Origin: Corallococcus interemptor
GTDB lineage: Bacteria > Myxococcota > Myxococcia > Myxococcales > Myxococcaceae
Direction: 5' to 3' (one strand)
Assembly: GCF_042231085.1 (NCBI RefSeq)
Contig: NZ_CP102579.1
Length of the DNA: 64,000 bases
Position numbers and translations under genes: made by a program. Positions 34,323 through 53,473 of the stretch are shown here, in pieces. Every line of letters starts with the position of its first letter. Position 1 is the first letter of the stretch. The notes beneath the pieces were generated by a model, which saw only the letters and a list, made by a program, of their open reading frames with translations, was not told the DNA's origin and did not search any database.

Positions 34323-34400
34323 TCAGCCCCGGGCGTCACGGCCCCGGGCGTGGGCGGCCTTGGAGAGCAGGTCGCTCCCCTTCTCCTCGCCCTGATGGCC
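34323..34400. repeat. Direct repeat copy A (~80 bp) matching 52790-52870
   Basis: Shared cagccccgggcg...gggcgtcacggccccgggc...gggcggc-ttggagagcaggtcgctccccttctcctcgccct with few mismatches and a 9-bp indel. Confidence 0.7.
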
Positions 34401-34425
34401 GTCCTTCAACGAAGCCGTCGCCGGC

Positions 34426-35760
34426 TCAGGACCGAAACCGCTCCACCTCATGGAAGAACTGGGTGAGCGAGTAGTCCAGCAGCGACTGGCGGGACTGCAT
34501 GTACCGGCGGGCTCGGAGGAAGGGCAGCCAGACGCGCTCGCCGACCCGCACCTGGGACTCCTCCAGCTTCTTCCGTGGCACCCATTCTCCCCCCAGCCGG
34601 CGCACCAGGATGCCGCCCAGGTAGGCACCCACGGCCGGGGCCGTGTGCGCGTCGATGAGTTCCCTTGTGTAGCGCTCCGGAAAGTTCTCCCGCCAGAGGT
34701 GGAAGTCGAGGTCCGTGAGGGACTCGGGCGTTGCGTCCATGAGGGATGGCAAGTGGATGTGCAGCGCGGCGACGAGTCCTTCGGACAGCTCTCCGTAGGA
34801 GGAGAGGACGCGCTCCTGACTCTCCACGTCTGATGGCAACGCCGCCGGGAGCCACTCCTCCGGCTCGGGTGGCCGGAAGACGTTGAGTTCGGCGATCTTC
34901 TGCTGCCGCTCGCTGATGGCGAACGTGTCTGGCAACCGAGAGAGCAGCGGCGCCAGGTCCGGGTGGAAGTGGGGCTCCACTGGGACGAGCGCGGCGCTGC
35001 GCGCTCTCAGCCTGCGAAGCACCGTGTCGAAGTCGAGGTCTGGCCGCAGGTGGACATGCGCTCGGGCCTGGGCAACGCGCGCATCGTCGCTCGCGAAGTC
35101 CGCAGGGGTGGGCCACAGGATCAGGAGGACGGAGCCGTTGGGAAGCTCCTCCACGAGGCGCGCAGGCGTTGAGAGCATCCGCTCTCGGCCTACGGACTCG
35201 ACCAGCTTCGAACCGAAGACGTTGAGCCAACACACCTCGTAAACCTTGTCGAAGCCATCCCTCCGAGACACCTCTGCTTCGCGGCCAAAATGGGGGAATC
35301 CCGCCAATTCACGGTCAGCCATGCTGTGAGCCGAAGCATACGGCGCCGGGTAGTGGATGGCCCATGCCCGGACCATCTCAATGAACCGCCAACATTCCTC
35401 TGTCTTCGAAAAGAGTGAGAGGGGTTGAACGTCGAGCCATATTTGAAGGCTCGAAGGAAGAGGCGGAAGCCTGAGCCGGAGCGACATATCCAACATGGGC
35501 CACTTCTTGCGATAGAGCCCAACGGAGGTGCTTCTTTCGCCGCGCTCCTCTTTCAGGATTCTCCAGATGGCAGCACGAGAGTAGCTCTGTGGCCGCTTCC
35601 CTTTGACGATGTCCGGCATCCACTCGCCGGCACCCGCCTCAAGCGCCTGCAGGAAGGGCTCCAACTCGCGCTCGAAGTCAGCCTGATGCGCGAGAGCACC
35701 TTCGAACGAGAGCAGAAGGTTGTCGTCCATATTCACTCCATGGAACGCAGGAGAGCTCAT
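34426..35760 (-). CDS. Putative immunity protein of sitBAI-like cassette (SitI-like)
   Basis: ATG overlaps stop of upstream lipoprotein toxin gene (ATGA). No known domain. Position downstream of toxin. Confidence 0.5.
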   Translation of the reverse strand: MSSPAFHGVNMDDNLLLSFEGALAHQADFERELEPFLQALEAGAGEWMPDIVKGKRPQSYSRAAIWRILKEERGERSTSVGLYRKKWPMLDMSLRLRLPPLPSSLQIWLDVQPLSLFSKTEECWRFIEMVRAWAIHYPAPYASAHSMADRELAGFPHFGREAEVSRRDGFDKVYEVCWLNVFGSKLVESVGRERMLSTPARLVEELPNGSVLLILWPTPADFASDDARVAQARAHVHLRPDLDFDTVLRRLRARSAALVPVEPHFHPDLAPLLSRLPDTFAISERQQKIAELNVFRPPEPEEWLPAALPSDVESQERVLSSYGELSEGLVAALHIHLPSLMDATPESLTDLDFHLWRENFPERYTRELIDAHTAPAVGAYLGGILVRRLGGEWVPRKKLEESQVRVGERVWLPFLRARRYMQSRQSLLDYSLTQFFHEVERFRS

Positions 35761-52740: not shown

Positions 52741-52766
52741 TGTGCTCCTTCAGGGAAAGGAGCACA
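52741..52766. terminator. Perfect 10-bp stem / 6-nt loop hairpin 18 nt downstream of the 268-aa gene stop (no U-tract)
   Basis: tgtgctcctt-caggga-aaggagcaca. Confidence 0.35.
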
Positions 52767-52783
52767 GGACAAACAGGAGGCGC

Positions 52784-53473
52784 TCAGCCCCGGGCGGCGC
52801 GGGCGTCACGGCCCCGGGCTCGGGCGGCTTTGGAGAGCAGGTCGCTCCCCTTCTCCTCGCCCTTCATCCATTCCTTCATCGCGGGCACCACCTGCTTGCT
52901 CCAGGCGCGGCCGGCGCGCACGGCCAGGAAGTCCTGCACCAGCGCGTCCACGATGGCGGAGAGCTTCTCGGTCAACTCCAGACGCTCGGAGAGCTGATCA
53001 TCCTCTTCCTCCGTCATGAGCGCGGGCAGCTTGGCGGCGCGGATGTCCAGGAACTCCGAATCCAGGGTGACTTCGTACTCGCGCTCGCCGTGCGACAGGC
53101 GCAGCCGCGCCTGCGACACCAGCAGGCCCCGGTCCAGCGAGTGGCGCACGTTCTCCGAATACGGCGCCAGCGTTCCCTTGGCGCTCATCTCCGTGACGTC
53201 GCCCGCCACGCCCCGCAGCACCACCTTGCCCAGGAAGAGGACGACGACACCCGCGCCGTCGTGCTCGACCAGCGGGTCGCCCGACTCCGAGCGCCACAAC
53301 AGCCACGTCATGAACTCGCGGCCCAGGTAGGCCCGGCCGCGCAGGAGCTGTTCGCGCGCCTTGCCCTTTTCGACCTCGGCCTCGTCCTTCTCCTCCTCCG
53401 TGGCGGCGCCGTCCACGCCGACATCGCCCCGCGCGAACGCCGCCTCTTCCCTCGCCTGCTCACGCCTCGCCAT
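52784..53473 (-). CDS. Hypothetical protein (Glu-rich N-terminus; 3' end forms island-flanking repeat)
   Basis: ORF, ATG at 53473; no recognised domain. Confidence 0.5.
   Translation of the reverse strand: MARREQAREEAAFARGDVGVDGAATEEEKDEAEVEKGKAREQLLRGRAYLGREFMTWLLWRSESGDPLVEHDGAGVVVLFLGKVVLRGVAGDVTEMSAKGTLAPYSENVRHSLDRGLLVSQARLRLSHGEREYEVTLDSEFLDIRAAKLPALMTEEEDDQLSERLELTEKLSAIVDALVQDFLAVRAGRAWSKQVVPAMKEWMKGEEKGSDLLSKAARARGRDARAARG
52790..52870. repeat. Direct repeat copy B (inside 3' end of 268-aa gene)
   Basis: See copy A. Encodes C-terminal ...KGEEKGSDLLSKAARARGRDARAARG. Confidence 0.7.

Follow-up and report, generated by a model that had tools for sequence, protein, structure and literature searches.

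Genomic islands that bring their own integrase, including integrative and conjugative elements (ICEs), are typified by foreign cargo of deviant composition, a conserved gene whose 3′ end is left intact, direct repeats derived from that gene, and clean empty sites. Foreign DNA also enters by Campbell-type single crossover or by homology-facilitated illegitimate recombination, both of which are known from suicide-plasmid integration and natural transformation. As for the cargo of such DNA, the sitBAI polymorphic toxin cassettes of Myxococcus (Vassallo et al. 2017, PMC5562445; Vassallo et al. 2021, PMC8546572), for which an 11-bp sitB/sitA overlap and a type I signal sequence have been described (PMC5562445), are proposed to help mobile DNA to be retained and to spread (PMC5562445). 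Here, we examined a 64,000-nt stretch of Corallococcus interemptor (contig NZ_CP102579.1; hereafter, the window), in which an 18.4-kb island joins a sitBAI-type cassette to a DISARM-like defence operon and lies directly behind the stop codon of a conserved gene, termed B.

With integrase-borne islands and ICEs, this island shares the four features listed above. Nevertheless, it differs from them in lacking an integrase, an excisionase and a tRNA, in that its distal repeat carries the 5′ flank of the gene, and in that the repeats are imperfect (i.e., three substitutions and a 9-nt indel). With Campbell-type integration and homology-facilitated illegitimate recombination it has in common a homology segment that was probably duplicated in direct orientation on both sides of the insert, no need of a dedicated recombinase, microhomology at the non-homologous joint, and a redundant copy that can be deleted. 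Unlike observed Campbell integrations, however, the event is here read from its scar only, and the crossover would have to fall at the extreme 3′ end of B. As an object, the locus is a hotspot genomic island of the ordinary kind; it stands out by its unusually informative scar and by the linkage of toxin and defence genes.

Filled and empty sites behind gene B

The island is bracketed by a direct repeat, the left copy (34323–34393, minus strand, 71 nt) and right copy (52784–52863, minus strand, 80 nt) of which have the same orientation and differ by three substitutions and one 9-nt gap. A reading made from the letters of the window (hereafter, the sequence-only reading) had noticed this repeat, and both copies could be confirmed as real, since the 33-nt exact core of the repeat occurs twice in the window while zero occurrences are expected from shuffled sequence. 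That reading was also right in placing the right copy at the 3′ end of a gene, i.e., the last 80 nt of B (AGGGCGAGGAG...GGGGCTGA), and the left copy in an intergenic region, within a spurious 101-aa open reading frame (ORF) ending ...GEEKGSDLLSKAAHARGRDARG. The length of 268 aa that it gave to the gene turned out to be an ORF-calling artefact caused by an upstream TTG start. Instead, B (52784–53473, minus strand) encodes a conserved hypothetical protein of 229 aa, with 603 homologues of 224–229 aa that extend to Myxococcus, Pyxidicoccus, Hyalangium, Archangium and Stigmatella.

The island starts 1 nt past the stop codon of B (TGA+G), and because the insertion point lies after the stop codon, this target gene was never interrupted and remains intact. 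At its other end, the start of B is overlapped by the last 14 nt of an rdgC-like core gene (53460–54110, minus strand; 216 aa, with the same 216-aa call in relatives), which matches Pfam RdgC (7e-09) and has NCBIfam RdgC matches under the cutoff. This rdgC-like/B pair is kept in all 13 of the B loci examined (in Corallococcus, Myxococcus, Pyxidicoccus and an unclassified Myxococcaceae strain).

The sequence-only reading had predicted an empty site in which B adjoins the DUF5953 gene at 33503–34264, and such a site was found in two strains that are ~99% identical to the window. More specifically, a look-up of the 74-aa peptide encoded at 33188–33412 yielded three loci, i.e., in C. coralloides KYC2213 (L058), in GCA_020036995 (L059) and in Corallococcus sp. 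AS-1-6 (L057, with L056); the Corallococcus scan covered one genome per species, and exact-protein look-ups of the window B, of the 444-aa protein encoded by the last gene of the island and of its 434-aa AS-1-6 version found no record. In both KYC2213 and GCA_020036995 the gene order is MVP – 74 aa – DUF5953 – B – rdgC – dacB, without island and with one copy each of the ~80-nt sequence, and the identity to the window is 99.0–99.2% over both flanks. Positions 1–11215 of the KYC2213 locus align to window 23200–34393 (99.0%) and positions 11135–20223 to window 52783–61870 (99.1%), the 81 nt of overlap between these alignments being its single B 3′ end, which matches both window copies. Compared to the empty sites the window holds 18,461 nt of extra DNA, 18,357 nt of which (34426–52782) are unrelated to B. 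Corallococcus sp. AS-1-6, on the other hand, carries the same island with the same scar. These empty sites and the filled AS-1-6 site uphold the proposal that the segment is an accessory island which was inserted where a protein-coding gene ends.

The empty-site allele retains 9 nt and a GA dinucleotide that are also present in the B orthologues of other species, from which it follows that the empty state is ancestral. For the same reason, i.e., the retention of these ancestral bases, the empty sites were rejected as excision products. From position 33961 to the relic of B at the left end of the island, both carriers (i.e., the window and AS-1-6) differ from both empty-site strains by eight SNPs, a 9-nt deletion and two substitutions, which together form a haplotype of ~390 nt. 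This island-linked haplotype is confined to the DUF5953 side, including the 3′ 300 nt of the DUF5953 gene; on the B side no island-linked alleles were found, the A at 52829 being private to the window. The flanks of the two carriers differ by 4–17 mismatches per kb, and the window is at least as similar to the empty-site strains (99.0–99.2%) as to the carrier AS-1-6 (98.4–98.8%). These comparisons indicate a single founding insertion, probably followed by recent movement of the island among conspecific lineages via flank recombination.

In composition, a check suggested along with the sequence-only reading, the island falls below its flanks: its G+C content is 67.6% vs. 70.7% for the rest of the window, and the G+C content at third codon positions (GC3) is 0.79–0.88 in its genes vs. 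0.89–0.98 in the flanking core genes. Scans of the island genes (Pfam, NCBIfam, PADLOC) and of the GC3-supported flanking ORFs of the 64-kb window (Pfam) detected no integrase, transposase or other recombinase, which agrees with the earlier remark that no integrase is visible inside. A tRNA was discarded as target, no tRNA being present in the 64-kb window, and a phage or plasmid vehicle was likewise rejected, as there was no phage match and the matches to plasmids comprised only 477 nt at 72% identity, within the SNF2 gene of the defence operon.

The left-end scar and the probable route of entry

The sequence-only reading regarded the repeat as a simple attachment-like duplication of the 3′ end of the target, and this does not hold, because the left copy also has 30 nt from upstream of the B start. 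The left element is composed of a relic of the last ~80 nt of B (34323–34393), which has two substitutions and a 9-nt deletion vs. the empty-site allele, and of a stretch termed U′ (34395–34425, minus strand), i.e., a diverged copy of the sequence upstream of the B start codon. In 27 of 31 positions U′ matches U (53472–53502, minus strand), the native 30–31 nt upstream of that start codon, which make up the 3′ end of the rdgC-like gene and are of the source type of U′. This is the sole match within the window with at most 8 mismatches on either strand, the next best having 10–11. U′ lies between the stop codon of the sitI-like gene, with which the island ends, and the B 3′ relic, and abuts both. 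Read in the sense of B, the left element runs from the sitI stop at ...GGTCCTGAG through CCGGCGACGGCTTCGTTGAAGGACGGCCAT, a single C and AGGGCGAGGAGAAGG...GGGGCTGA to a G followed by the native terminator, with …TCGTTGAAGGACGGCCATG… as the U′ junction sequence.

Both joints of this element contain microhomology. The motif GGCGAGG occurs at the start of B and again at its end (i.e., the native start reads ...GGACCTG CCGGCGACGGCTTCGGTGGAGGGCGCCC ATG GCGAGGCG..., and the sequence near the end reads ...GAAGGGCGAGGAGAAGG...), and the same GGCGAGG is held by the U′/relic joint, where ~610 nt of the U+B interior are gone. The joint between the sitI end and U′ shows the microhomology CCTG..CC, which is common to the cassette flank and the rdgC end. 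Since the left element fuses both ends of U+B, it would be the relic of a whole second B copy whose interior was lost, which implies that the duplicated unit probably comprised the whole of B with its 5′ flank (~730 bp) and was gutted later. We therefore infer that the repeat at the far end is the likely scar of a gutted second B, rather than an attachment site.

U′ is a Corallococcus-type rdgC-end sequence, the U regions of Myxococcus, Pyxidicoccus and JPH2 being much further from it (10–14 mismatches). Exact and degenerate pattern searches of metagenome and viral collections for a donor of U′ found nothing, and U′ was rejected as a part of the sit cassette because it is absent from all 48 sit loci compared. 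No second B fragment close to B was found in the other sampled genomes, within 6–10 kb downstream of B.

A hairpin at 34263–34314 (minus strand; –38.6 kcal/mol, z –6.7), which had been missed by a consensus terminator scan (it has no T-run) and was revealed by folding, is the native bidirectional terminator between the convergent DUF5953 gene and, formerly, B. In the empty sites this terminator directly adjoins B, whereas in the window it now stands 3′ of the relic. The corresponding region of strain EGB aligns unbroken with the relic region of the window, from the B 3′ end via the terminator into DUF5953, and the relic therefore occupies the original position of B, before the native terminator. 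Directly 3′ of the B stop codon, the native terminator is replaced by an island-borne hairpin (52740–52767, minus strand; 12-bp stem, fold –30.7 kcal/mol, z –2.8), the sequence of which is missing from the empty sites.

On balance, we lean towards a route in which the composite 18.4-kb island entered by homology-driven integration that duplicated B, followed by a stabilising deletion of the second copy. DNA with B-homologous sequence beside the island would have been taken up by the cell and have integrated with no need of a site-specific recombinase, either through one RecA-type crossover in B by a circular or circularised fragment (i.e., Campbell-type) or through an equivalent microhomology-guided template switch. 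Such a crossover would duplicate B on either side of the insert, and the joint between the sitI end and U′ (CCTG..CC) would be the closure or switch joint. The redundant downstream B would subsequently have lost ~610 nt of its interior between the two GGCGAGG motifs, shrinking the repeats from ~730 nt to 71–80 nt with 33–43 nt of unbroken identity, and this should curb recombinational loss of the island. Later, the island would have moved among conspecific strains via flank recombination.

Several observations weigh against this route. The B beside the island is native-type throughout, its ~1% difference from the empty-site B being at background level, so that the crossover must have taken place at the extreme B 3′ end or the donor B must have been nearly identical. 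The U′/relic joint contains an extra base (CCAT-C-AGGGCGAGG) and is not a clean microhomology deletion. Moreover, the divergence of U′ is ~13% from every Corallococcus U that was sampled, as against 2–4% for the relic and flank next to it, an unevenness that the route leaves unexplained, and the full-length second B copy that would be the intermediate was found in no genome examined. Finally, a circular intermediate would leave no trace in sequence data, and an integrase acting in trans from beyond the 64-kb window is possible.

A serious rival, if an unlikely one, dispenses with a full second B altogether. In a single step of microhomology-mediated template switching, synthesis would have passed from the island end into the rdgC end (CCTG..CC), copied 30 nt, then slipped from the first GGCGAGG to the second, and gone on into the 3′ end of B and beyond. 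The microhomology at both joints and the 1-nt filler would suit such an event, as would the drop of divergence with distance from the joint (~13% in U′, ~4% plus an indel in the relic, and ~2.3% in the next 350 nt), which is reminiscent of error-prone synthesis. However, a mosaic of donor sequence explains the falling divergence equally well, the island-linked SNPs over 390 nt resemble an ordinary recombination tract, and sequence alone offers no independent support for such events in myxobacteria.

It is also improbable, in our judgement, that a site-specific (tyrosine or serine) recombinase, since lost or encoded elsewhere, integrated a circle with an attP that was a copy of the final ~80 nt of B, which would make the repeats attL and attR. 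Although target-derived direct repeats flanking foreign DNA and clean empty sites are what such a recombinase would produce, and the repeat ends exactly at stop+1, as if an island-borne copy had preserved the reading frame, no recombinase was detected in the island or elsewhere in the window. Moreover, the 30 nt of B upstream flank in the left copy can be accommodated only if, in an additional prior step, the element had captured B and deleted it. The absence of a second B-end copy from the 6–10 kb downstream of B in the other sampled genomes, and the lack of a known phage match or of any plasmid match beyond the 477 nt at 72%, further speak against this explanation.

The least parsimonious rival, which we hold to be very doubtful, starts from an in-situ tandem duplication of U-B, with foreign DNA landing between the copies and the downstream copy decaying. 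The joint expected from such a tandem (GCTGAG/CCGGCG) is close to the distal joint of the island (CCTGAG/CCGGCG), and CTGAG is found at both ends of the non-B insert; however, CCTGA is the native sitI end in all paralogues, which makes the CTGAG match mostly coincidence or microhomology. In addition, none of 12 B loci shows a B-B tandem, three independent events at one spot would be required, and U′ is far too diverged for a recent in-situ copy. As for a dispersed repeat (the circumstance that the sequence-only reading had itself named as speaking against an island) or a chance match without insertion, this is refuted by the two window copies vs. none expected, the single copy in every relative and the precise empty sites, and has in its favour only the high G+C content that inflates short matches (many 64–88% repeat families and inverted-repeat pairs are present in the window).

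A sitBAI-type cassette joined to a defence operon

The cargo had been described from the sequence as a sitBAI-like cassette together with a DISARM-like operon, and domain and profile matches as well as the architecture support this. The first gene of the cassette is sitB-like (37936–39378, minus strand; 480 aa, with a 480-aa call in AS-1-6), and its translation (MFMRWSWVIVLLLLPGAGGA...) begins with a type I signal peptide at the N-terminus. Along 11 bp (37936–37946) it overlaps with a sitA-like gene (35757–37946, minus strand) for a putative lipoprotein toxin of 729 aa, the translation of which shows the lipobox LLTAGC (N-terminus ...LVLTLALLTAGC) and which has paralogues in 48 myxobacterial loci, those retrieved being annotated as hypothetical. 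The last gene of both the cassette and the island (34426–35760, minus strand) is sitI-like, encodes a putative immunity protein of 434–444 aa and belongs to a multi-copy family, some homologues of which are labelled DUF3396 by their source. In sitBAI cassettes, SitA has an N-terminal escort domain of one of six families and a C-terminal nuclease toxin, with a cognate immunity gene downstream. Neither the sitA-like toxin of the island, its C-terminal domain included, nor the sitI-like protein matched a Pfam or NCBIfam family, and the toxin and immunity roles are putative, having been assigned by gene position only. A two-gene paralogous module, in which the 444-aa gene would be a paralogue of the gene upstream of B, was considered and rejected, since BLASTP finds nothing and the upstream gene is rdgC-like.

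The cassette is multi-copy, with 48 loci and several per genome in Corallococcus, Myxococcus, Archangium, Vitiosangium, Hyalangium and Cystobacter; in many loci sitB-like homologues adjoin sitA/sitI-like genes, and some loci are tandem, while behind some there are orphan 3′ pieces of the last gene. Its 1188 homologues are, where named, nearly all myxobacterial, one match being a metagenome-assembled genome labelled Verrucomicrobiaceae. DNA homology to the other sit cassettes stops at, or 13 nt beyond, the sitI-like stop codon. The cassette thereby resembles sitBAI of Myxococcus in its succession of a signal-peptide protein, a lipobox lipoprotein and a downstream gene, in the 11-bp sitB/sitA overlap, and in being multi-copy and variable in location with named homologues that are almost all myxobacterial. 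Unlike Myxococcus sitBAI, however, it is joined to a defence operon in a chromosomal hotspot and does not reside on the Mx-alpha prophage-like unit.

As a separate observation, the last ~95–200 nt of the sitI-like gene (window 34426–34630) are 77–87% identical at the DNA level among paralogues of different genera, the proteins being only 62–70% identical. Furthermore, orphan sitI-like 3′ fragments lie 1–3 kb downstream of complete cassettes (L010–L013, L051, L052). The conserved sitI-like 3′ DNA may serve as a recombination handle for cassette replacement.

The defence operon (52527–39681) comprises four genes that are translationally coupled or near-coupled and all lie on the minus strand. 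The first (47269–52527) encodes a DEAD/DEAH helicase of 1752 aa that is DruE/DrmA-like, scores higher in PADLOC as DruE (8.9e-86) than as DrmA (5.8e-16), and unites DEAD, Helicase_C and a C-terminal MrfA Zn-binding (DUF1998/MZB) domain in one protein; its homologues at ~58% identity are spread across phyla. The second (44464–47247) is a DrmD/DpdE-like SNF2 helicase of 927 aa (Pfam SNF2-rel_dom and Helicase_C), with PADLOC values of 5e-182 for DpdE and 4.5e-78 for DrmD and an NCBIfam DISARM_DrmD score of 304 bits vs. the cutoff of 610. The third (40466–44467) is an N6-adenine methyltransferase of 1333 aa that is DrmMI/type IIG-like and qualifies as DrmMI of DISARM class 1 (PADLOC 2e-64; Pfam Eco57I and N6_Mtase), while the last gene of the operon (39681–40469) encodes an HNH endonuclease of 262 aa (Pfam HNH_2 7e-13; PADLOC HNH 5.6e-28). 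The phospholipase D (PLD) nuclease DrmC has no counterpart, as no PLD domain was found among the operon genes by Pfam or PADLOC and the fourth gene is an HNH_2 endonuclease.

With DISARM class 1 (drmD, drmMI, drmA, drmB, drmC) and Druantia the operon shares the presence of an SNF2 helicase, a large N6-adenine methylase and a DEAD helicase with DUF1998. It departs from DISARM class 1 in that helicase and DUF1998 are fused in one 1752-aa protein with DruE as the top score, in that the SNF2 protein falls under the NCBIfam DrmD cutoff and scores best as DpdE, and in that an HNH nuclease takes the place of the PLD nuclease DrmC. An identical four-gene order was found in a Logan metagenome contig (L055, ~77% nucleotide identity) and on the conjugative plasmid pISP0 of Sphingomonas sp. 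MM-1 (NC_020542.1, 231014–243790). The four genes thus seem to form a conserved, widely mobile defence module that is a poor fit to DISARM class 1; "DISARM-like" is a fair label, with membership of DISARM class 1 not established. Because sit loci elsewhere are without defence genes, and L055 and pISP0 are without sit genes, i.e., the two modules occur separately elsewhere, the island is composite.

Between the window and AS-1-6, the sit part shows ~0.45% mismatches, and the defence operon, minus one block, shows 9 mismatches in 10.2 kb (~0.09%). This variable, C-terminal block lies in the methylase gene (40640–41990, plus 42405–42589; residues ~950–1250) and is ~9% diverged, with 52 of the 70 amino-acid differences at residues 1100–1250. 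The block has the look of an exchanged target-recognition module, by which the methylation specificity would be altered, and its occurrence between near-identical islands suggests a recent switch in target specificity.

An insertion hotspot and its implications

In every species or genus sampled, gene order breaks right after the B stop codon (L001–L004, L053/L054, L060–L063), the rdgC-like/B pair with its 14-nt overlap being invariant across these loci. Three Corallococcus loci (L002–L004) have a 73-aa gene downstream of B, followed by MVP, i.e., the major vault protein gene. In strain EGB, DUF5953 fragments, a DUF6310 gene and others follow B, in AB004 a rearrangement is found, and in JPH2, Pyxidicoccus and M. 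fulvus the downstream genes are unrelated. Judging from these gene orders, the B 3′ flank is a recurrent hotspot of rearrangement and insertion, located between B and the MVP gene in the C. coralloides-group strain. The DUF5953 gene (33503–34264, plus strand; 253 aa, GC3 0.73, Pfam DUF5953 2.9e-116), the neighbour of B in the empty sites, is absent from other Corallococcus species and thus marks an older insertion at the same hotspot.

Within the DUF5953 gene, eight substitutions in 125 nt (window 33833–33958) are private to the window, with AS-1-6, KYC2213 and GCA_020036995 agreeing with each other; this patch is a short conversion or recombination tract. The MVP gene of the window (30575–32842, minus strand) encodes a bacterial homologue, with Vault repeats and the MVP shoulder domain, of the major vault protein of eukaryotes, and its position is kept in Corallococcus strains. 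A few kb from the island, 27750–29369 (minus strand) encodes a LysM protein with a C-terminal domain like that of VgrG3 of the type VI secretion system (of the peptidoglycan hydrolase type), which is kept in the empty-site strains. Finally, 20645–21600 matches itself and L002 in several registers shifted by ~270 nt, which suggests that the 307-aa ORF at 20673–21596 (no Pfam match) is an internally repetitive gene.

The locus provides a dated insertion that is resolved to the base pair, with filled and empty sites at 99% identity, in the Myxococcaceae, where island transfer is poorly understood, and its scar, which keeps both ends of a duplicated core gene, points to recombinase-independent entry. 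Moreover, the linkage of a kin-discrimination toxin cassette to an anti-phage operon makes the proposal that sit cassettes promote both the retention and the spread of mobile DNA (PMC5562445) testable. More tentatively, myxobacteria may acquire islands without an integrase by using a whole core gene as a portable homology arm, the gutting of which locks the island in, with sitBAI acting as a population-level addiction module that spreads the linked anti-phage operon. If true, carriers would poison island-free kin via outer-membrane exchange and so drive the operon through conspecific strains by recombination in the flanks, which would explain why the defence operon is ~10-fold less diverged between carriers than the surrounding core genome.

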